Counted from the stretch's first letter, positions 32,263 to 42,406 are shown. The stretch: 64,000 nucleotides of DNA from Flavobacteriaceae bacterium (GCA_002862755.1 PKDY01000039.1:8789-72788), one strand, 5' to 3'. Made by a program: numbers and translations. Notes: generated from the sequence alone by a model not told the origin.

Positions 32263-33057
32263 TTAGAAAGTATATTGAATTCCTATTCCTTGATACCCAA
32301 AACCAACTTCTGGTGCAATTCTTAAGTTGCTATCTTTTTTTCTGTGTAATCTTGGTACTAAGATACCACTAGTGGCTCCAATAACATAACCCACAATAGC
32401 ATCTGATAAGAAATGATTTCCGCCTTTTACTCTATAATATCCTACTGCAGCTGGAAGTAATGCAGCACCAGCCCAAATATAAGGCTTTGCTTTGGAATTT
32501 GGATAAAAGTCTGCATAAACTTGTGCTGCAAAAAAAGTAGATGCGGCAGCTGCAGCTACATGGCCACTAAAAAAGGATCTTTGATTGTTGCTCTCAAGTC
32601 TTTCATCCAAGCTTAAATCGATATTATATACTTTTGGTCTTGATTTTTCAATAAATCCAGATGATACTGTAAATGTAGCCAAAGATAAACCTACAGCTTC
32701 TACATACATGACCGATAATTGTCCTGCATGTTGTCTGGTATCTTTATTTAAAGCAAATAGAAAGGGTATTGCTAAAGATGTATAAAGAGGAATGTCGCTT
32801 TGGTTTGATGCATTTTCATCATAATTTCCAGCTGACCATCGGTCTACAAACCAAATATCATCTGCATTCAATGCGTTTAATTTTTCTTCTGTGAGTGGTT
32901 TTTTATCTTTAATTACTAAAAGTCCCCAAGCGTTTATTCCTGCAGCACCAACAATGATAGAACCGTCAGTTAATAAATCAGTTTTGTAAGGTGATTCTTT
33001 TTGACCTACAAGATAATAGGGCAGTGCTAAAGCAAATAGAAGGGCTATCTTTCTCAT
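32263..33057 (-). CDS. PAP2-family phosphatase
   Basis: KSRP, SFFSGH, RVKGGNHFLSD motifs. Start placed at 33057 (MRKIALL) because the track ATG at 33087 lies inside the predicted -7 element. Confidence 0.85.
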   Translation of the reverse strand: MRKIALLFALALPYYLVGQKESPYKTDLLTDGSIIVGAAGINAWGLLVIKDKKPLTEEKLNALNADDIWFVDRWSAGNYDENASNQSDIPLYTSLAIPFLFALNKDTRQHAGQLSVMYVEAVGLSLATFTVSSGFIEKSRPKVYNIDLSLDERLESNNQRSFFSGHVAAAAASTFFAAQVYADFYPNSKAKPYIWAGAALLPAAVGYYRVKGGNHFLSDAIVGYVIGATSGILVPRLHRKKDSNLRIAPEVGFGYQGIGIQYTF

Positions 33058-33084
33058 TTTGTCTCTGTTTATTTTCCAATGAAA

Positions 33085-33145
33085 CAAAGTAACAGTAGAA
33101 GGTTATGATTTGTTTTATATAATGCAGACTAACTTTTATATAATT
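33085..33145 (-). promoter_or_regulatory. Tandem-box promoter (regulon site 6) for PAP2-tamB-tamL
   Basis: -7-like 33085-33092 (sense TTACTTTG); TTATATAATG 33115-33124; TTATATAATT 33136-33145. Confidence 0.72.
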
Positions 33146-33260: not shown

Positions 33261-34172
33261 ATGAGATTCCAAAAACGTATAGTAGTTATAGCCCTTTTAT
33301 TTGCATCATTGGTTCATGCTCAATTTGATACTGATGCAATTCATTTAAATGTAAGTCACATTCCTAATTCGGATTTAAAAAATGCAGATGCTAGAGCCGA
33401 TTTAACGGAAGTTGATTTTCAAAGTTTTACACCCACGATTCGAATTGGAAAAAACACAAAATTGAATAGTATTATCAATTATAGATTATATGACTATAAT
33501 TTTGACTCTCCAGTCCCAGAATCTGATAATTATCCCGATAACATGCATCATTTTAAATATACGTTATTGGTTAGACAAAAAATAAATGAACATTGGAATG
33601 CATATATTGCGCCTAGGTTAAATATTCGAACCGATTTTAAGAGTAATTTTACCTATCGTGATTTATTTCCAGTTCTTACAGCTATGTTTGTAAAAGATGT
33701 GGTTCGAAATCCGCACTACAAATACGGTATTGGGATTAATTTCAATAATAATAATGGGAAATTTAGAGTGTTGCCAACCGCTTATTTTCAATATCAAAAA
33801 GACAATATGAAAATTAGTGCCTTCATTCCTTCAAAAGCTTCCATTACATTTGCTAATGAAAAATATGCCTATGGTTTTGGATATCATTCCGAAAGTAATA
33901 TAACCCATTTAAATTTGTCGGATGATCCTGCTGTTAATCCCAATAATATTACGTATCTTAGAAACATGAATGTTTTTGTGTATCCTTCTTATTCAAGAAA
34001 CTTAGGTTCAGATATTTGGGTTACTCTAAAAGCAGGAATTACGATTCTAAGATTGTATGAACAATACAACAGTAGTTTTGATGATATTACCGATTATTAT
34101 AATGATTCCTTTAAACCAAATGCCTATTTTAGTATAGGATTTAGTTATAAAGTAGATGATAGCAAAAAATAA
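33261..34172 (+). CDS. DUF6268-like outer-membrane beta-barrel protein
   Basis: Signal peptide; alternating aromatic beta-strands, YGIG, LPTAYFQY, terminal IGFSYK. Confidence 0.65.
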   Translation: MRFQKRIVVIALLFASLVHAQFDTDAIHLNVSHIPNSDLKNADARADLTEVDFQSFTPTIRIGKNTKLNSIINYRLYDYNFDSPVPESDNYPDNMHHFKYTLLVRQKINEHWNAYIAPRLNIRTDFKSNFTYRDLFPVLTAMFVKDVVRNPHYKYGIGINFNNNNGKFRVLPTAYFQYQKDNMKISAFIPSKASITFANEKYAYGFGYHSESNITHLNLSDDPAVNPNNITYLRNMNVFVYPSYSRNLGSDIWVTLKAGITILRLYEQYNSSFDDITDYYNDSFKPNAYFSIGFSYKVDDSKK

Positions 34173-34174
34173 AA

Positions 34175-36484
34175 ATGATTACTAAAGAAAACATAGTTTT
34201 ATCTCCTTATGAAGTGGAATTTTCCATTGCACCCTTTCTTGATACTTTTACTTTTCCGAAAAATCCAGAGCTAAAGGAATATTATCAAAATTTGTTTTCT
34301 AAAATACAACATGTACTGGTTAAAGAAAAAGAAATTACAGGAATTGTAAGAGATAATGCTTCTTTGTTTGAGGAGTTCTTTTCCATTCTAATTCCAGAAC
34401 ATATTTCTAAAAATGAATACAAAGCTGTTGTATTACCTGTAAAAAACACCATTTTATTTCGAAGTGAAAAATTAAACGAAATTGACTGTTCGGTGAAAGA
34501 AAGTATTCGTTTTTTTGATGCTTCCCCAGATATAATTTACAAGTTGAAAGCCATGATTGTTTTAAATTCGATTATCGAAAATAAAATAACATTGGACAAT
34601 AAAATCATTTTTGAATTCAAAGACACCAAAGGGGTTTATAAAACATTTTTTATCTCTAATAGAAATGATTTTTTAAAAATTTATCCCAAAGATTCCTCCA
34701 GTTATCCAACAACCGAACAAATCAATATGTTGTTAAACGACTTGGATAATATAGATTTATGGAAAGAAATTTTTCCTGAAGGAAGTTGGAATGTAGAGGG
34801 TTTTTGTATTTTAACTATGGTAGAAAATACGTTAGAGAATGCGGTTTCCCAATTGAAAACGAATCTGTTAAGTTCTCAAAGTGACACCTTAGTAAATGAT
34901 GAAAGTTTTAAAAAAATTTTCAGATCTATTTTTGATATTCCCGATTTGAAAATTGGTATAACTATCTACGATAGCGAAGAAAATACTTTAATTAAAACAA
35001 GTTATAATGATGTTGAGATTGACAGTTTTGTATTAAACGATAAAATGAGTAAAAATATCTCTGAGTTTAAGAGCGATTCTTTATTAAAGACTAGCATTCT
35101 AAAAAGAGAACCTATTTTTATTCAAAATTTAGAGCAATATAGTATTTCAAGTACTGAATCCGTATTGTTAAATGTATTGTTGGAACAAAATATTCAAAGT
35201 TTTATTATTGCTCCCATTGCTAGTAGAAAAGGAATTATTGGTACGATTGAATTGGTATCGGAAACCAAATATGCCATCAATAAAAAGAGTTTGAGTAGAT
35301 TGAAATTGATTTTACCGATTATAACCAATACTTTAGAGCGTTCGTTAGAAGCTACTGCCAATCGAATTGATGCCATCATTCAAAACGAATACACTTCTAT
35401 TCATCCTAGTGTGTATTGGAAATTCAAACAAGGCGTGAGAGATTTTTTGAATTCCGACAAAAATCTTGAAGAATATACATTTAAAGACATTGTGTTTAAA
35501 GATGTTTTTGCGTTATTTGGTCAAATAGATATTAAAAACTCCTCTCACAATAGACAATTGGCTACCATTGAGGATATTAGGAATCAATTACAACTTTTAA
35601 TCAACTTGTTTCAATCTATTATTAAAGAAAACAAAATTTTAATCGCCGATCAGATTCTTTTTGAATTGGATAAATTTTCTGTTGAGATTGAAAATAATTT
35701 TGATACTACCTCCGAAAGTACTTTTAAATTATATGTAGAGAGCGAAGTGCATCCAGTTTTGGAAACCATGGTTTTTTCTGAAACTATTACTGAAAAAGTA
35801 AAGGCTTATTATGAAAAATTGGATCCGAAACTGAATATTATTTATGACAATAGAAAAGCGTATGACGAATCCGTTGCTTTATTAAATAAAAAGATGTCTT
35901 CTTATTTAGATGAATGTCAGTTAGAAGCGCAAAAAATATTTCCTCATTATTATGAACGATACGCAACAGATGGCATAGAACACAATATGTACATTGGTGC
36001 TTCCATTAATCCTAGAATGGAATTTAGTCCGCTATTCTTCAATAATTTAAGATTATGGCAATTAAAATCGCTGTGTGAAACCGTTTATAATTTTCAAAAA
36101 TGGAAACATATTTTAGATTTTCCTTTAGAAGTAACGACTTTAATTTTGGTTTTTAGTTCTCCTTTAACCATTCGTTTTAGAATGGATGAAAAATTATTTG
36201 ATGTAGATGGTTCTTACAATGCACGTTACGAGGTTGTCAAAAAAAGAATTGATAAATCACACATTAAAAATTCAGAAGAACGCATTACACAAGAAAACAA
36301 AATTACCATTGTATATGCTCAAAATTCTGAAAAAGTAGAGTATATGAAATACTTAAAATATCTTATAGCGAAAGGCTTGCTCGAAGAGGAAATTGAAAAA
36401 TTTGATGTTGAAGAACTACAAAGTATTTCAGGTTTAAAAGCTTTACGAGTTACCATTAAGCCTATTCCAAATCAAGAATGTTGA
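34175..36484 (+). CDS. Large cytoplasmic GAF-domain protein, conserved Bacteroidota family of unknown function
   Basis: GAF-like QSFIIAPI...IIGTIELVS; family motifs TSIHPSVYWKF, FGQIDIKNSS, TDGIEHNMYIG, FDVDGSYNARYEVVKKRIDK. Confidence 0.8.
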   Translation: MITKENIVLSPYEVEFSIAPFLDTFTFPKNPELKEYYQNLFSKIQHVLVKEKEITGIVRDNASLFEEFFSILIPEHISKNEYKAVVLPVKNTILFRSEKLNEIDCSVKESIRFFDASPDIIYKLKAMIVLNSIIENKITLDNKIIFEFKDTKGVYKTFFISNRNDFLKIYPKDSSSYPTTEQINMLLNDLDNIDLWKEIFPEGSWNVEGFCILTMVENTLENAVSQLKTNLLSSQSDTLVNDESFKKIFRSIFDIPDLKIGITIYDSEENTLIKTSYNDVEIDSFVLNDKMSKNISEFKSDSLLKTSILKREPIFIQNLEQYSISSTESVLLNVLLEQNIQSFIIAPIASRKGIIGTIELVSETKYAINKKSLSRLKLILPIITNTLERSLEATANRIDAIIQNEYTSIHPSVYWKFKQGVRDFLNSDKNLEEYTFKDIVFKDVFALFGQIDIKNSSHNRQLATIEDIRNQLQLLINLFQSIIKENKILIADQILFELDKFSVEIENNFDTTSESTFKLYVESEVHPVLETMVFSETITEKVKAYYEKLDPKLNIIYDNRKAYDESVALLNKKMSSYLDECQLEAQKIFPHYYERYATDGIEHNMYIGASINPRMEFSPLFFNNLRLWQLKSLCETVYNFQKWKHILDFPLEVTTLILVFSSPLTIRFRMDEKLFDVDGSYNARYEVVKKRIDKSHIKNSEERITQENKITIVYAQNSEKVEYMKYLKYLIAKGLLEEEIEKFDVEELQSISGLKALRVTIKPIPNQEC

Positions 36485-37659
36485 TAGGCATATAAAAATG
36501 TAAGTACTGAAACGACGATACCCACCATAAAAATATTATAAGTAATTCTCAATAATTTATATTTTCGGTCTAAAATGATTCCTAAATAGTGTAAATCTTT
36601 CGTAAGAGAATTATATAAATAATCGTTGTCTAACATCATTTTGTTAATTTCATCTTCATAATCTTGATAGGGAACTTTATAAAAGTTTCCAAAAAATAAT
36701 AGATTTACCTTTTTATTTAAAATATCTTCTTTGGTGAATTCGGTTGAGGTTACTTTGGGGCGAGTTGCTAAAATCGCAAATACAATCGAAATCACACTAA
36801 AAAATAAAAGTACAAATGTAGGTAAGGTAAGGTATATGTTTCCAGGACTATCTAATTTAGGAATTAAAACAGATAAGGCTACTGAAATAATAACAGCATT
36901 AACCGAAAGTAAAATATTAGCCTTACTATCAGCAATATCGCTTAGTCTAGTGTGATTATTAATGGTAACTCTAAATAAAGTCTCTACACCACGTCCTAAT
37001 TTTTTTTTCTTTTTCTTTTTTTTCTTTTTTGGCGTTACAACAAGATCTTCATTTTTTTCTATTGCTCTTTTTTCTGTTCGTTTTTCTTCCAAAATTCGTA
37101 TGTTTTTTTGTTTGATTGGCTCCCAATTTTCCTTTGCGTAATTGGTATAAAATTGGTGTTTATCTTTTAAAAATGAGATGTTTTCATTCAACCATTCTTT
37201 CTCTGAAAAAATCGCTACATCACAGAGTTTCCATTCTGTGCGTAATTCTTTTAAAAAAGAGAAATAAGCATCACTACCCACGTGGTAATAATCGGAATCG
37301 CACATTATTTTTTCTAAAATGGTTTTGGGTTCATGATTAAAAACAGTAGCCATAATTAAATTACTAACCGAATCAATAGTGTTTTGATCTACTTCATTTG
37401 CAACTAAAAAAGTAGTGGCAATTTTAACACTTTCTCCTTCATGTCCATCTTTACATTTAATATAGCCTGTATCATGAAACCATGCAGCCAATTGCAAGAT
37501 CTCAATATCTTTTTCAGAAATCTGTTCCTGCTGACCAATTTCTTCAACAGCATTGACCACATTTTTAGTATGCGTTACATCATGGTATTTATATTTAAAT
37601 TCTAATACATTTTTAAATAATTCTGTAACGTATAGTTCCGCTTTTTTTACTAATTTCAT
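36472..37659 (-). CDS. HD-domain protein fused to a Pycsar-effector-like TM domain (DUF5706)
   Basis: YHDVTHT, AAWFHDTGY, GHE, DSDY HD motifs; C-terminal ADSKANILLS, AILATRP, LLFFGNF, RKYKLLRITY with TM helices. Confidence 0.85.
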   Translation of the reverse strand: MKLVKKAELYVTELFKNVLEFKYKYHDVTHTKNVVNAVEEIGQQEQISEKDIEILQLAAWFHDTGYIKCKDGHEGESVKIATTFLVANEVDQNTIDSVSNLIMATVFNHEPKTILEKIMCDSDYYHVGSDAYFSFLKELRTEWKLCDVAIFSEKEWLNENISFLKDKHQFYTNYAKENWEPIKQKNIRILEEKRTEKRAIEKNEDLVVTPKKKKKKKKKKLGRGVETLFRVTINNHTRLSDIADSKANILLSVNAVIISVALSVLIPKLDSPGNIYLTLPTFVLLFFSVISIVFAILATRPKVTSTEFTKEDILNKKVNLLFFGNFYKVPYQDYEDEINKMMLDNDYLYNSLTKDLHYLGIILDRKYKLLRITYNIFMVGIVVSVLTFLYAYQHS

Positions 37660-37683: not shown

Positions 37684-40600
37684 ATGAAATTTAATTACTT
37701 TAGAAAGCTTTTTTTTGTAAAAATAATTTGTGTTTTGGCTTTATTAGGCTTTCTGAACTCTTGTGCTACTTATTCTGTTCAAACGGGTAAAAATATTAAA
37801 AATCCAATTGCACCTATTGAGGTCGAAGCTCAAGAAGTGGATCATACTTTTTATTTAGTTGGTGATGCTGGAAATGCTGATGCCGTAAATTCAAAGCAAG
37901 CTTTATTGCCATTAGAAAATAAATTGGAAAAAGCCTCCAAAAACAGTACTTTAATGTATTTAGGTGATAATGTTTACCCAGTAGGAATGTCAGGTGATAA
38001 AGATACAGAAGAATATAAAACTGCTGAAAAAATCTTAGAAAACCAATTAAAAATTACTAAAAATTTTAAAGGTAAAACAATCGTTATCCCAGGAAATCAC
38101 GATTGGTATAGTGGCTTGAAAGGTTTGAATAATCAAGAAGATTTTGTTATTTCCTACTTAAAAGATAAGGAATCCTTTTCACCACGAAAAGGTTGTGCTA
38201 TTGAAGACTTTGAAATTAACGATAATATTACTTTAATTACGATTAATAGTCAGTGGTATTTAGAAGATTGGAATAAAAACCCAACGATTAACGATGATTG
38301 TAATATAAAGAGTAGAGATGAATTTTTTGCCGAATTTGAAAGCCTTTTAAATAAAAATCAAGATAAAACTGTTGTGGTTGCGATGCATCATCCGTTGTTT
38401 ACTAATGGAGTTCATGGCGGACATTTTGGAGTACGAAAAATGTTATTATCGGCTGAAAATTCATTTCCAGTACCTTTATTAGGAACTTTATATAATTTAT
38501 TGCGAAAAACTTCTGGAATTAGTTCTCAAGACGTTTTAAATAAAGATTATACCGCTTTATCCAAACGCATCCAAACCTTAATTCAAAAAAATGAAAATAT
38601 TATTGTGGTTTCGGGTCACGAACATAGTTTGGAATACATTGAGAAAAATGGTGTGAAACAAATTGTTAGTGGTTCTGGAACCAAAATAAATGCCGCAAGA
38701 GCAATCTACCCAAATGATTTTTCTTATGGAAAAAATGGTTTTGCTACTTTAGAAATCTTAAAAACAGGAGAAGGAATTCTTACTTTTTATGGGAAAGAGA
38801 ATGATAAAGAAATTGTGCTTTATAAACAATCTATTTTAAAACCAGTTAATACAGAAACAAAAGACTATCCTAACACATTTCCTGCATACAAAGAAGCAAC
38901 TGTATATGAGCCAGAAAAAACTAAAAAATCTGGTTTTTATAATTTTTTATGGGGCAAGCATTACCGCAATTATTATGGATTACCTATTAGGGCAAAAGTA
39001 GCCACTATTGATACTCTTTTTGGAGGCTTAAAAATTGATAGAGAAGGAGGAGGACAACAATCAAATTCTTTACGCGTAATTGATAAAAACAAACAAGAAT
39101 ATGTTTTGCGTGCTGTGAAGAAAAATGCAACTCGTTTTTTTCAAGCAGCTGTATTTACCGATCAATATGTACAAGACGATTTGAAAGATACGTATGTAGA
39201 AACTTTTTTAATGGATTTTTTCACAACTGGACATCCTTTTACTTCTTTCATAATTGATGATCTTTCAAAGAATATTGGTATTTACCATGCCAATCCAAAG
39301 TTGTATTACATACCCAAACACGATGCTTTAGGTAAATTTAATTCTAGTTTTGGTGATGAACTGTACATGGTTCAAGAAAGAGAATCGGATAGTCAATTGG
39401 ATGAATCTTCCTTTGGTAAACCAGATGATATTATTGGAACCGATGATTTATTTAAAAAATTGAGAAAAGATGAAAAATACCAAGTGGATGAGAAAGCATT
39501 TATTAGAGCCCGACTTTTAGATATGCTTTTAGGAGATTGGGATCGACATGCAGATCAATGGAAATGGTCGGAATTTAAAAAAGGAGATAATGAGGTCATT
39601 TATAAACCGATTCCAAAAGACAGAGATCAAGCCTTTCCTAAATATGGTGGCGTTTTAATGAGCTTAATTCTAAATCTTCCTGAATTTAGAAAAATGCAAT
39701 CTTATGATTCAGAAATTCAAAATTTAAAATGGTTGAATCATGTAGGTTATCAATTGGATATTGCTTTTTTACAATCAAACAAAAAGGAAGATTGGGAAAA
39801 ACAAGCGGTTTTTATTCAAGAAAATTTAACCGATGCGGTTATTGATAATGCCTTTTTACAATTGCCAAAAGAGGTACAAGACGCTACCAGTGATAAGTTG
39901 AAATCGGATTTAAAATCGAGAAGAGATCATTTAAAAGAATATGCAGTTCAATATCATAAATTATTAGAAAAGAGAGCGATTATTGTTGGTACAGATAAAA
40001 AAGAAGATTTTTATATTAAAAAAATTAGTCCCAATGAAATTGAAGTTTCACAGATTAGAAATAAGAAAGATGGTGAAGAACAGTTTATCATGAAACGTAC
40101 ATTTACCTCTAAAAATACCAAAGAAATTTGGATTTATGGTTTAGATGATGATGATAAGTTTATAGTTGAAGGTGACTTTAGATCGAAAATTCATGTGAAG
40201 CTTATTGGTGGTCAAAATAATGACGTTTATAAAATAGAAAACGGTCATAATGTGAAGATTTATGATTATAAGACTAAGGACAATACTTTTGAAATTGATG
40301 GAAAAACGAATACACGTTTGAGTGATGATTATGAAATGAATGTGTACACCTACAGAAAAGCCAAATACAATTCCTTTTCTGTTATTCCGGGAGGTGGATT
40401 TAATCCGGATGATGGTGTGAAATTAGGAGTAATTATGAATTATATTCACAATGGTTTTAGACAAAATCCGTATACGAGTAAGCATACTATAACGCCTAAT
40501 TATTTTTTCGCAACCAACGGTTTTGAAGTAAAATATAAAGGTCATTTCCCAAAATTAGTAGGACAACTCGATTTTAATATTGATGCTAAAATTACCAGTC

Positions 40601-41421
40601 CGAATTTTACCATTAATTATTTTGGATATGGCAATGAATCGGTTTATAATGATTTAGATGAAGATATAGAATTTGATTATAATCGAGTTAAATTAAGAAA
40701 TTTCAATTTTTATCCTTCTTTAAATAGAGTGGGAAAAAAAGGAAGTTTAGTAAGTTGGCAATTAGGATTTGAAGATTTAGAAGTTGAAAAAACTGCGAAT
40801 CGTTTTATTAGTGAACCAAATGTGGTAGCAGAACGCGTGTTTACGCACCAACAATATGCAAGTACCAAAGTAAGTTATGGTTTTGAAAACTATGATATTG
40901 TTTCTTTACCAACCTATGGCATGGGATTTTTATTGGCTGCCGAATGGAAAAGTAATTTAGAGGATACCAATAAGAATTTTTTCACTTTAGAAAGTAAATT
41001 TAATTTTTCTCATAAAATTTCTACGAAAGGGAATTTGGTTTTCGAAACCTTATTGAGAGGGAAAATAATTACAAACGATAATTTTGATTTTTATCATGCT
41101 GCAGCGATTGGCGGAAATAATGGCATACGTGGCTTACGAAATGAGCGTTTTATTGGAAGACAATCTTTTTATCAAACTTCTGATGTGCGATTGACTTTAG
41201 GAAGTATTAAACGCAGTTTTGTTCCAATGAAATATGGAATTATTGGAGGATTTGATTATGGAAGAGTTTGGACCAGTAATGATACTTCAAATATGTGGCA
41301 TACTTCTTATGGTGGAGCTCTTTGGTTAAATGGAATTAATATGGTAACTGCAAAACTGGGTTATTTTAAAAATCCGAATGACAAAGGACGTGTTACTTTT
41401 GCAGTACAATTTGGATTCTAA
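37684..41421 (+). CDS. Outer-membrane lipoprotein: calcineurin-like metallophosphoesterase + kinase-like domain + Omp85/ShlB-like beta-barrel
   Basis: Lipobox LNSC; GDAG, GDNVYP, GNHDW, HHP, GHEH; GGGQQS and GDWDRH; C-terminal GGNNGIRGLRNERFIG, GGFDYGRVW, terminal F. Confidence 0.85.
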   Translation: MKFNYFRKLFFVKIICVLALLGFLNSCATYSVQTGKNIKNPIAPIEVEAQEVDHTFYLVGDAGNADAVNSKQALLPLENKLEKASKNSTLMYLGDNVYPVGMSGDKDTEEYKTAEKILENQLKITKNFKGKTIVIPGNHDWYSGLKGLNNQEDFVISYLKDKESFSPRKGCAIEDFEINDNITLITINSQWYLEDWNKNPTINDDCNIKSRDEFFAEFESLLNKNQDKTVVVAMHHPLFTNGVHGGHFGVRKMLLSAENSFPVPLLGTLYNLLRKTSGISSQDVLNKDYTALSKRIQTLIQKNENIIVVSGHEHSLEYIEKNGVKQIVSGSGTKINAARAIYPNDFSYGKNGFATLEILKTGEGILTFYGKENDKEIVLYKQSILKPVNTETKDYPNTFPAYKEATVYEPEKTKKSGFYNFLWGKHYRNYYGLPIRAKVATIDTLFGGLKIDREGGGQQSNSLRVIDKNKQEYVLRAVKKNATRFFQAAVFTDQYVQDDLKDTYVETFLMDFFTTGHPFTSFIIDDLSKNIGIYHANPKLYYIPKHDALGKFNSSFGDELYMVQERESDSQLDESSFGKPDDIIGTDDLFKKLRKDEKYQVDEKAFIRARLLDMLLGDWDRHADQWKWSEFKKGDNEVIYKPIPKDRDQAFPKYGGVLMSLILNLPEFRKMQSYDSEIQNLKWLNHVGYQLDIAFLQSNKKEDWEKQAVFIQENLTDAVIDNAFLQLPKEVQDATSDKLKSDLKSRRDHLKEYAVQYHKLLEKRAIIVGTDKKEDFYIKKISPNEIEVSQIRNKKDGEEQFIMKRTFTSKNTKEIWIYGLDDDDKFIVEGDFRSKIHVKLIGGQNNDVYKIENGHNVKIYDYKTKDNTFEIDGKTNTRLSDDYEMNVYTYRKAKYNSFSVIPGGGFNPDDGVKLGVIMNYIHNGFRQNPYTSKHTITPNYFFATNGFEVKYKGHFPKLVGQLDFNIDAKITSPNFTINYFGYGNESVYNDLDEDIEFDYNRVKLRNFNFYPSLNRVGKKGSLVSWQLGFEDLEVEKTANRFISEPNVVAERVFTHQQYASTKVSYGFENYDIVSLPTYGMGFLLAAEWKSNLEDTNKNFFTLESKFNFSHKISTKGNLVFETLLRGKIITNDNFDFYHAAAIGGNNGIRGLRNERFIGRQSFYQTSDVRLTLGSIKRSFVPMKYGIIGGFDYGRVWTSNDTSNMWHTSYGGALWLNGINMVTAKLGYFKNPNDKGRVTFAVQFGF

Positions 41422-41442: not shown

Positions 41443-41480
41443 AAAAAGAGAGAGTAACCAATTCGTTACTCTCTCTTTTT
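41443..41480. terminator. Bidirectional intrinsic terminator
   Basis: 16-bp perfect stem AAAAAGAGAGAGTAAC/GTTACTCTCTCTTTTT between convergent genes. Confidence 0.85.
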
Positions 41481-41524: not shown

Positions 41525-42406
41525 CTATTCTTGAATTTTATATTCATAAATTTTACCACCTACTTTCTTTGTTTTTTCATCTGAAATAAGTAAGATGTCA
41601 TTATCTTTAAAGGTAACTCCTTCACGTTGCGTAAAAGAATTAAACTGCACCTCTTTTAGGCTACCTTTAGTGAAATTGTCTTCCACAAAATCAGAAAAAA
41701 TCCACATTCTTTTGTTACTTAATAAAACTACTTTATCTTCATCTGGACTAATAGCTACATCAGTAATAGCACAAGTTGTAAACTTATCACAAGTAACATA
41801 TTTGTTTAATAAAATGGCTTTATGTTCGCCTATTTCATTTGGAATTTTATAAATATGAGTCGTTCCATCAAAATCTTTACTTCTGTTTTTGGTAAACAAA
41901 TAGAAATAACCATCTTTATATAAGAAAGATTCACAGTCGTAAAATAACTCATCTTTTTTAGGAGGGAAATCTTCTTGATCCTCATAGTAAAATTCTATTT
42001 TTTGAATGGAATCAATAGCTTCTTTTTTTAAATCTGCTCGATTGATTTTATAAATGGCTAAATTTTTTCTTTTATTGTTGTTGTTACCAAAATCACCAAT
42101 ATATACATTTCCCTCTTCATCAGAAGTTAAAGCTTCCCAATCGTGATTTTTAATACCATTAAGCTTTACTTCGCGAAGTAGTTTTCCGTCTGTAGCTACT
42201 TGATACAATTTATCAGGATTGCCACTATCTTGAATGACCCATAAGGTATCATTAACATAAGTCATTCCAGAAACTTCATCTAATTTATTTGAAAATTCTT
42301 GTACTTCAGTTACATCAATTTGTTTGATATCTGAATCTAAAGAGATACAGGAATAGTATAATGCACTAGAAAACAAGAATGAGGTGAATATGAGGTACTT
42401 TTTCAT
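41525..42406 (-). CDS. SdiA-regulated/YjiK-like beta-propeller lipoprotein
   Basis: Lipobox YSC; DEVSGM, DSGN, DWEAL, YIGDFGNN, DCESF, QREGV repeats. Confidence 0.75.
   Translation of the reverse strand: MKKYLIFTSFLFSSALYYSCISLDSDIKQIDVTEVQEFSNKLDEVSGMTYVNDTLWVIQDSGNPDKLYQVATDGKLLREVKLNGIKNHDWEALTSDEEGNVYIGDFGNNNNKRKNLAIYKINRADLKKEAIDSIQKIEFYYEDQEDFPPKKDELFYDCESFLYKDGYFYLFTKNRSKDFDGTTHIYKIPNEIGEHKAILLNKYVTCDKFTTCAITDVAISPDEDKVVLLSNKRMWIFSDFVEDNFTKGSLKEVQFNSFTQREGVTFKDNDILLISDEKTKKVGGKIYEYKIQE

Follow-up and report, generated by a model that had tools for sequence, protein, structure and literature searches.

An outer-membrane lipoprotein of Flavobacteriaceae that joins a purple-acid-phosphatase-type domain and a protein-kinase-like fold to an Omp85 barrel

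Here we describe a protein of the outer membrane, encoded in a Flavobacteriaceae bacterium (GCA_002862755.1 PKDY01000039.1:8789-72788), that consists of a lipoprotein signal peptide, a metallophosphoesterase of the purple acid phosphatase (PAP) type, a domain with a protein-kinase-like fold, an all-beta linker, and an Omp85-type beta-barrel. The stretch of DNA that was analysed is 64,000 nucleotides (nt) long and is called the window throughout; all positions are those of the whole window (Table 1), and loci and genomes of the comparison set are written as L or G followed by a number. Each part of the protein is of a known kind (kinase-like fold, PAP phosphatase, Omp85 anchor), and it is the setting that is unexpected; the kinase-fold domain had previously gone unannotated. 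The most likely reading, which we hold with moderate confidence, is that this domain would act as a phosphotransferase (or as a nucleotidyl-transferase) with its own phosphatase as a partner.

The original prediction made for this stretch had placed a phosphoesterase and an atypical kinase on a single beta-barrel, and that arrangement of domains was borne out, with Pfam and NCBIfam recognising the two ends of the protein and Foldseek the middle. Four motifs had been quoted from the central region, REGGGQQS, YVLRAVKK, DMLLGDWDRHADQW, and PIPKDRDQAF, and translation located every one of them exactly where it had been placed. The quoted motifs are not due to chance: when the whole window is translated in all six frames the pattern D-x-R-H-x-x-[QN] turns up a single time, and the residues concerned are invariant or nearly so among homologues. 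An AlphaFold2 (AF2) model of nearly the full length, covering amino acids (aa) 46-1245, has a predicted local distance difference test score (pLDDT) of 86.2 and a predicted template modelling score (pTM) of 0.82.

Nothing in the sequence databases announces the kinase-like domain. The roughly 400 residues between the phosphatase and the barrel have no Pfam match at E<=10 and no NCBIfam match, and neither phmmer nor a profile hmmsearch against the Protein Data Bank (PDB) returned a kinase domain. At the same threshold PF00454 is absent from this protein and from 34 homologues, while HipA_C (PF07804) has no Pfam match in the protein and none in this genome. With every sequence-level search empty, the domain is visible only by its fold. 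For aa 401-800 an AF2 model was made from an alignment of 34 sequences (pLDDT 84.9, pTM 0.83) and compared by Foldseek with 350,542 PDB chains, and all of the top 50 matches were protein-kinase-like folds, the very kind of fold that the original prediction had said a structure search ought to find. The leading matches, each with a Foldseek probability of 1.00 and with E-values down to 1e-5, were CtkA of H. pylori (E 1e-5, TM-score 0.52-0.54, target-normalised), human PI4KII-alpha, and HipA from several species; Fam20C (4kqb, probability 0.99), Rio2, COQ8/ADCK3, and a few eukaryotic protein kinases followed. The domain had been likened beforehand to PI3/4-kinases, HipA, and CotH; PI4K and HipA are indeed among the best folds, but CotH is not among the matches. 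The structure paper on PI4KII-alpha names CtkA and Fam20C as its nearest structural analogues (PMC3974213), which puts the present domain in a coherent structural neighbourhood. The modelled elements also follow the kinase order. In the N-lobe a strand, the Gly-rich loop, a second strand, and a third strand ending at Lys480 lead into a helical region, and a helix ending in R610-x-x-D613 is then followed by the loop G-D618-W-D620-R-H-x-D-Q625, a beta hairpin, and the segment D646-R-D648-Q-A-F.

The residues of active-site type are well conserved, both among 148 cluster representatives with 33-52% identity to the query and in a full-length alignment of 41 homologues, of which 34 represent 24 named genera together with several further lineages of Flavobacteriales. 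The family consensus of the Gly-rich loop is GGGxQ[TS]xSLRL, with G455, G456, and G457 conserved in 82-91% of the representatives and Q459 in 86%. Position 480 is Lys in 146 of the 148 and Arg in the other two; Lys480 is a candidate ATP-phosphate-binding residue, the putative equivalent of K152 in PI4KII-alpha, whose replacement by Ala abolishes activity (PMC3974213). Four residues (R610, D613, D618, and D692) are the same in 148/148, R621 in 147, and H622 in 133, while position 625, which stands at the canonical spacing of +5 from D620, is Gln in 133 and Asn in 12 (Q/N together 98%). In the downstream segment R647 and D648 are each kept in 145/148 (98%) and D646 in 136/148 (92%). D620 is present in 128 (86%), with Gly in 11, Ser in 6, and Asn in 3 of the others; of the 79 forms fused to the phosphatase 76 retain it (96%), as against 23 of 33 short forms. 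All twelve of these positions from K480 to D692 (K480, R610, D613, D618, D620, R621, H622, Q625, D646, R647, D648, and D692) are invariant in the 41 full-length homologues. A set of residues resembling an active site is under strong purifying selection. Both the Asp of the DRH triplet and the downstream Asp residues, whose conservation had been singled out as a check on the kinase proposal, are thus widely kept. Of the proposed DRH-type catalytic signature, the +5 spacing from D620 is present, but position 625 is an amide that is usually Gln and not Asn, and the truly invariant Asp is D618 of the GDW motif and not D620.

Stand-alone paralogues of about 423 aa (L124-L127, in G219, G279, G291, and G091) share genomes with the fused gene; they begin with a signal anchor, the motif C-F-E-C is conserved in their C-terminal part, and their catalytic loop reads DWDRHxKQW, with Lys in place of the Asp of the fused forms, as in HipA.

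Judging from the model and from these residues, we have moderate confidence that the kinase-fold domain is catalytically active. It would bind nucleotide and Mg through the Gly-rich loop, K480, Q625, and D646/D648, and would pass a phosphoryl (or nucleotidyl) group to a substrate in the envelope, which might be the head group of an outer-membrane lipid, a glycan, or a protein; the tethered phosphatase would then remove or process the transferred group. The result would be a doubly membrane-tethered pair of phosphate enzymes that faces the periplasm and works at the outer membrane's inner leaflet. A number of observations weigh against an active enzyme of this kind. On the prevailing view there is no ATP in the periplasm, and since no pool of it is known there, enzymes of kinase fold are unexpected in this compartment of Gram-negative bacteria. 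The kinase likeness, drawn from a predicted structure, is structural only, without significant sequence or profile similarity: a profile of the domain made from the 148 sequences gave a non-significant hhalign probability of 0.08-0.09 against E. coli HipA, and again of 0.08-0.09 against a 12-member HipA-family alignment assembled from genome hits, where the motifs do align but are not counted as evidence. The TM-scores themselves are modest, at 0.38 query-normalised and 0.54 target-normalised. The Mg-binding position holds Gln and not the canonical Asn in 90% of the members, D620 is replaced by Gly, Ser, or Asn in 14% of the representatives and in 30% of the short forms, and since D618 is invariant while D620 is not, the chemistry may differ from that of textbook kinases.

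Several of these same observations would suit a pseudokinase-type sensor or scaffold, a domain that binds a nucleotide, a metal, or a phospho-ligand without transferring anything and acts allosterically on the phosphatase or on the wider gene module. We regard this as possible, though clearly less probable than an active enzyme. Besides the missing ATP pool and the Gln at the Mg-binding position, it could account for the short forms that lose D620 while D618, R621, and R647 stay, and a non-catalytic kinase-like fold has been proposed for another bacterial envelope protein, SrfA-N (preprint 10.64898/2026.09.18.752743). However, the fused forms keep every canonical catalytic position either invariant or at 96%, the Gly-rich loop and the beta3 Lys included, which exceeds what ligand binding usually needs, and the interchange of Gln and Asn at position 625 suits the coordination of a metal.

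Placing the domain among known kinases brings out both what is shared and what is peculiar to it. PI4KII-alpha, CtkA, and HipA (4hnd, 3akl, and 3tpv) are the nearest solved folds, and they have in common with it the order of Gly-rich loop, beta3 Lys, and D-x-[HG]-x-x-[NQ], as well as an Asp that comes straight after a beta hairpin and has A-F-P behind it. Compared with these three, the domain is longer by about 60 residues from the Lys to the catalytic loop, and it has Gln for Asn, the extra invariant D618, a D-R-D motif, an extracytoplasmic location, and no significant sequence similarity; unlike PI4KII-alpha and HipA it also has no inositol-lipid pathway and no HipB partner. Fam20C and CotH are precedents for kinase folds outside the cytosol, without any sequence relationship to the present domain, and Fam20C works in the ATP-supplied Golgi lumen, unlike a periplasmic domain. 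A preprint of September 2026 reports new kinase-like families of Bacteroidota that were recognised by structure, and it leaves 17 families undescribed (10.64898/2026.09.18.752743). SEAE1, which it does describe, is a PIK-like family of Bacteroidota that was likewise found by structure only (bioRxiv 10.64898/2026.09.18.752743), with a core of K...D(+5)N...D-x-D, and it sits beside the lipid phosphatase PAP2, which also neighbours the module described here in 3 of 16 short-form loci. The preprint calls its new families, SEAE1 included, intracellular and unfused; by description SEAE1 differs further, with 76 residues from Lys to Asp where the present domain has 140, and its description mentions no fusion to Omp85 or PF00149. 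Among the kinase-like families listed by KINtaro, no named one corresponds to the domain.

The likeness to PI4KII-alpha raises the thought of a genuine phosphoinositide kinase, a bacterial orthologue of type II PI4K that would phosphorylate the cell's own inositol lipids in the outer membrane. By structure PI4KII-alpha is one of the best matches, and it is likewise lipid-anchored on a membrane (PMC3974213), and some Bacteroidota do make inositol lipids (cited in preprint 10.64898/2026.09.18.752743). We nonetheless consider this highly improbable. The gene for inositol-phosphate synthase (MIPS, PF01658) is missing from this genome, as it is from every other genome sampled in the genus and the family, although nearly all of these carry the Omp85 gene; an inositol-lipid substrate is therefore unlikely in this lineage. 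Across the phylum the gene is found in 28 of 57 MIPS-positive genomes against a background of 41%, which is no real association, and PF00454 does not match even at E 10. For this lineage the inositol-lipid kinase was therefore rejected.

The phosphatase that precedes the kinase-like domain is the part most easily recognised. Pfam Metallophos (PF00149) matches aa 56-314 with an E-value of 9e-11. The signature of PAPs comprises five blocks, GDxG, GDxxY, GNH(D/E), xxxH, and GHxH, which together supply seven metal ligands. All five are present, as GDAGN (60-64), GDNVY (94-98), GNHD (137-140), MHHP (234-237), and GHEH (311-314), and the ligands D61, D95, Y98, N138, H236, H312, and H314 are invariant or at least 90% conserved. 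A weak alignment with pig PAP (1ute) spans GDxxY, GNHD, and GHxH, and Foldseek finds the PAP-fold protein GAP50 (3tgh, E 3.3e-9, TM-score 0.67) with its calcineurin-like sandwich. The N-terminal domain is thus a PAP-type metallophosphoesterase with a complete set of metal ligands, and it is predicted to be hydrolytic. The mature protein's only Cys residues, 171 and 206, both lie in this domain; both are invariant, and as a lone pair they are consistent with a disulfide. The original prediction had held that such proteins are usually annotated as metallophosphoesterases and nothing else, and nearly all named homologues do carry that label in the databases.

At the other end of the protein the AF2 model shows 16 long strands closing into a barrel, whose Foldseek matches are TamA (TM-score 0.74), Sam50 (0.68), and BamA (0.65), with E-values down to 4e-10. 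In Omp85 proteins the L6 motif (V/I)RG(F/Y) lies between strands 11 and 12. Here the long loop between these strands carries G-I-R-G-L-R-N-E-R-F (nt 41122-41151, aa 1147-1156), in which the Arg and Gly columns are invariant and the fourth residue is Leu where the consensus has Tyr. Pfam places ShlB/Omp85 on the C-terminus (E 4.6e-5), NCBIfam assigns Omp85_fam, Pfam Omp85 (PF01103) matches 16 of 34 homologues with a best E-value of 7e-18, and the family profile matches BamA chains with E-values down to 1.8e-7. The linker that stands at the usual position of a POTRA domain consists of 11 short strands in the full model, as assigned by DSSP, without any beta-alpha-alpha-beta-beta unit; no POTRA is present in the modelled linker (aa 764-880), nor is there a POTRA match in Pfam. 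It carries the conserved motifs YGLDDDD and IGGQNND, resembles a beta-roll, and possibly binds Ca2+, to go by these motifs.

A phosphatase of family PF00149 followed by an Omp85-type barrel is the layout of the 'Metallo' subfamily of Omp85 proteins in Bacteroidota, of which the present protein is a member (PMC4104836). The survey that catalogued it took PF00149 for a metalloprotease, gave no function, and left the kinase-fold domain of about 360 aa unnoticed; it also called the subfamily genus-level, whereas the core of kinase-like domain and barrel described here is found across the phylum. Heinz & Lithgow (2014) noted that the 'Metallo' barrels resemble those of the POTRA-less 'noNterm' group (PMC4104836). 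The subfamily was still listed as uncharacterised in 2024 (PMC11116518), and in the experimental literature we found nothing on this family, only an unrelated Riemerella metallophosphoesterase secreted by the type IX secretion system.

How the enzymatic domains are oriented matters for every reading of their function. It is fairly secure that the lipid and the barrel both anchor the protein in the outer membrane. In Bacteroidota, lipoproteins are exported to the surface by a signal of the form C-X-K-(D/E)2 or SDDFE (PMC5080379). Here Cys27 is followed by A-T-Y-S-V-Q, which contains no acidic surface-export signal; the lipobox S-C-A-T is nearly invariant among homologues, and in none of the 27 orthologues with a lipobox do two acidic residues stand side by side at positions +2 to +6. 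The family occurs in three architectures, each of which has an N-terminal export signal: the long form has a lipobox, the short form has a signal peptide, as read from one example (P0170), and there is a signal anchor (MKK and a hydrophobic stretch) in the four stand-alone forms of about 423 aa. Together with the Cys pair and the precedent of PlpD, an enzyme on an Omp85 barrel whose N-terminal domain was shown by experiment to stay in the periplasm (PMC11116518), this makes it most likely, on grounds of sequence and analogy, that the enzymatic domains face the periplasm against the inner leaflet of the outer membrane, and not the cell surface. PlpD likewise carries an N-terminal enzyme on a 16-strand Omp85 barrel and acts on membrane lipids (PMC11116518), and it would seem the best working analogy both for the topology and for a barrel that serves as an anchor. 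It differs in that its enzyme is a patatin lipase, its linker is alpha-helical, and it has one POTRA, where the present protein combines a PAP-type phosphatase with a kinase fold, has a linker made of beta strands only, lacks a POTRA, and bears an additional lipid anchor at the N-terminus. The description of a lipidated writer/eraser enzyme of the envelope, as first put forward, is supported by the lipobox, the barrel, the phosphatase motifs, and the kinase fold; phosphotransfer itself remains a prediction from the model.

The same layout might instead belong to an autotransporter resembling type Vd, whose barrel would export the phosphatase and kinase-like domains to the surface or the medium, for instance for the scavenging of phosphate. 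Secretion was first proposed in PlpD for just this arrangement, with the enzyme at the N-terminus and the Omp85 barrel at the C-terminus; PAPs are typically extracellular scavengers, and for the 'Metallo' subfamily the possibility was brought up by Heinz & Lithgow (PMC4104836). Yet the enzyme domain of PlpD turned out to be periplasmic (PMC11116518), and of the type Vd order of passenger, POTRA, and barrel the present protein has the enzyme and the barrel but no POTRA, while its N-terminus is lipid-anchored and bears no acidic export signal. The full model is moreover compact and confident, and the partner with which the gene is consistently linked is a protein of the inner membrane. We therefore find export improbable and continue with the periplasmic phosphotransferase and its phosphatase.

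The family is large, old, and widely distributed, and in most of its members the kinase-fold domain is joined to an Omp85 barrel. There are 1721 homologues in a collection clustered at 90%, an exhaustive domain-only search yielded 2175 clusters of the kinase-fold domain at 50% identity, and relatives are encoded in the genomes of at least 598 species, with one copy in this genome. Among 301 evenly drawn Bacteroidota genomes the family occurs in 122 (41%), in 55 of 143 genera and with up to five paralogues per genome. These paralogues are often in tandem; one genome has three adjacent copies of about 530-590 aa, and pairs 2-7 kb apart occur elsewhere (G155:C27:62422-66811, G043:C25:102192-110602, and G281:C2:1838720-1841932).

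Neighbouring genes were counted in the best 80 loci, which come from Flavobacteriaceae, Weeksellaceae, and Myroides and all encode the fused architecture of PF00149 and barrel. A divergent gene for HD-PycTM, which combines a cytoplasmic HD domain with an inner-membrane PycTM domain, is adjacent in 61 of the 80, as is a gene for a phytase-like beta-propeller lipoprotein; a gene for a GAF-domain protein, which has no match in the PDB or NCBIfam, is adjacent in 49. Other lineages contribute the most telling loci. At L133, L136, L137, and L139 the propeller gene abuts the kinase-Omp85 gene or the HD-PycTM gene on the same strand, and at L133 and L139 it lies directly upstream of the kinase-fold-Omp85 gene. 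L137 is a string of five abutting genes on one strand, for HD-PycTM, the propeller, a separate PF00149 phosphatase, the GAF protein, and the kinase-fold-Omp85 protein; L136 has the propeller, a separate phosphatase, and the kinase-fold-Omp85 gene, with PPK1, HD-PycTM, and a PAP2 phosphatase alongside. Since the phosphatase is a separate gene in L136 and L137, the fusion studied here is the Rosetta-stone version of a multi-gene module, and the kinase-like and phosphatase parts, fused in one lineage and adjacent in others, are probably coupled in function. PPK1 was considered as a general companion of the Flavobacteriales version and rejected, being present in only 1 of 96 loci (L136); in this genome it lies on another contig.

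The link to PycTM extends over the whole phylum sample. A strong homologue of (HD-)PycTM is encoded in 105 of the 122 genomes with the kinase-fold domain, and (HD-)PycTM occurs alone in 9 genomes, which gives an odds ratio of about 117 (Fisher p 4e-51, uncorrected for phylogeny); the two genes are at most 15 kb apart in 83 of the 105, with a median distance of 4 kb. The family is therefore genetically coupled to (HD-)PycTM, to the phytase-like propeller lipoprotein, and to the GAF protein, a context stronger than the original prediction had recognised.

The two domains of HD-PycTM are fused or split according to the lineage. In another class of the phylum PycTM is a separate gene of about 200 aa, sometimes beside a separate HD gene of about 210 aa, and it is still about 4 kb from the kinase-fold-Omp85 gene (G044:C55:275173-275703, G245:C89:2997-4173, and G172:C2:929366-930590). 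In the window the HD motifs are intact (H-D at aa 26-27 and 62-63), and the linker between the two domains is a run of ten lysines (window 37000-37029, minus strand), encoded by an A-rich tract (T-rich on the plus strand) of the type that is prone to polymerase or ribosome slippage.

Since the membrane domain of this partner matches the models of PycTM and CBASS 2TM effectors, and since a GAF protein adjoins, the genes could be thought an anti-phage defence module of the Pycsar/CBASS type with the Omp85 protein as an accessory effector. We give this idea very little weight. PADLOC matches only the transmembrane domain of the neighbour, the other four proteins match no model, and an HD domain, fused or adjacent, takes the place of the cyclic-nucleotide-binding domain of PycTM and CBASS effectors. 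Defence islands are patchy and mobile. The present set, single-copy and syntenic, is found in each of the 12 genomes sampled from the genus and in 22 of 23 from the family; with this vertical inheritance and a PADLOC match to the transmembrane domain only, it is unlike a defence island and looks more like a housekeeping module.

Returning to the phosphotransferase and its phosphatase, we may speculate that the coupling to PycTM provides either a supply of donor or a route of signalling. The fullest version would make the Omp85 protein the outer-membrane end of a trans-envelope cycle of periplasmic phosphorylation with a donor supply of its own, which we put forward very tentatively and think unlikely in this complete form. 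In such a cycle (HD-)PycTM, possibly controlled by the GAF protein, would let a nucleotide of the cytoplasm (ATP or a cyclic one) out into the periplasm. With this donor the kinase-fold domain would phosphorylate a lipid, glycan, or protein of the outer membrane, and the mark would be reversed or cleared by the PAP-type phosphatase and the phytase-like propeller.

Some further features of the region may be recorded. The hairpin between the convergent stops of the Omp85 and propeller genes is probably a bidirectional terminator, in which case the Omp85 gene would be the last in its transcription unit. A scan for sigma-70 promoters found 26 sites where 32 were expected, and the sequencing runs that carry the sequence are of metagenomic DNA only. 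The gene for a DUF6268 protein ends 2 bp before the start of the GAF gene and is probably co-transcribed with it, but it is not a conserved neighbour across the 80 orthologous loci. Genes for PAP2-family lipid phosphatases stand beside the module in three short-form loci (L135 14735-15574, L136 16024-16872, and L139 13747-14634), and a PAP2 gene is found at 32263-33087 of the window, in a TamB/TamL operon about 4.6 kb upstream of the kinase-fold-Omp85 gene.

Table 1. Positions of the protein, its parts, and its neighbours, counted from the first letter of the window
Feature	Position (nt)	Strand	Details
DUF6268 protein	33261-34172	+	303 aa; Pfam E 1e-13
GAF-domain protein	34175..36484	+	769 aa; Pfam GAF_2, weak
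HD-PycTM, cytoplasmic HD and inner-membrane PycTM (2TM-effector-like)	36472..37659	-	Pfam PycTM 1e-34, HD 1.7e-9
Open reading frame of the Omp85 lipoprotein	37684..41421	+	1245 aa, TAA stop
Lipoprotein signal peptide	37684..37764	+	lipobox L-N-S-C, Cys27
PAP-type metallophosphoesterase	37837..38838	+	aa ~52-385; PF00149
Protein-kinase-like (PI4KII/CtkA/HipA-like) domain	38887..39969	+	aa ~402-762; AF2 and Foldseek
Gly-rich loop R-E-G-G-G-Q-Q-S	39040..39063	+	aa 453-460; between model strands 50-54 and 60-66
Lys480, end of third N-lobe strand	39121..39123	+	model strand 72-80; last residue of YVLRAVKK, aa 473-480
Helix end and catalytic loop D613-M-L-L-G-D618-W-D620-R-H-A-D-Q625-W	39520..39561	+	DMLLGDWDRHADQW, aa 613-626
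P-I-P-K-D646-R-D648-Q-A-F, DFG-equivalent metal-binding segment (predicted)	39607..39636	+	aa 642-651; directly after hairpin, model strand 238-244
All-beta linker	39973..40323	+	aa ~764-880; usual POTRA position
16-strand Omp85-type beta-barrel	40372..41418	+	16 long strands in AF2 model
Hairpin, 16-bp perfect stem, flanked by A-runs/T-runs	41443..41480		between convergent stops of Omp85 and propeller genes
SdiA-regulated/phytase-like beta-propeller lipoprotein	41525..42406	-	Pfam PF06977, 2.6e-10; convergent

Should the kinase-fold domain be active, a donor must reach the periplasm, with the tightly linked PycTM-type membrane protein as an obvious candidate for the route, or else the fold must have become suited to a donor other than ATP. 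In both cases a new field of envelope biology would come into view, in a phylum that is important in soils, in the oceans, in fish disease, and in the gut. It would also offer a function for an Omp85 subfamily that has been uncharacterised, and misnamed a 'metalloprotease', since 2014, and thousands of entries now labelled no more than 'metallophosphoesterase' or 'hypothetical protein' could receive a new annotation.

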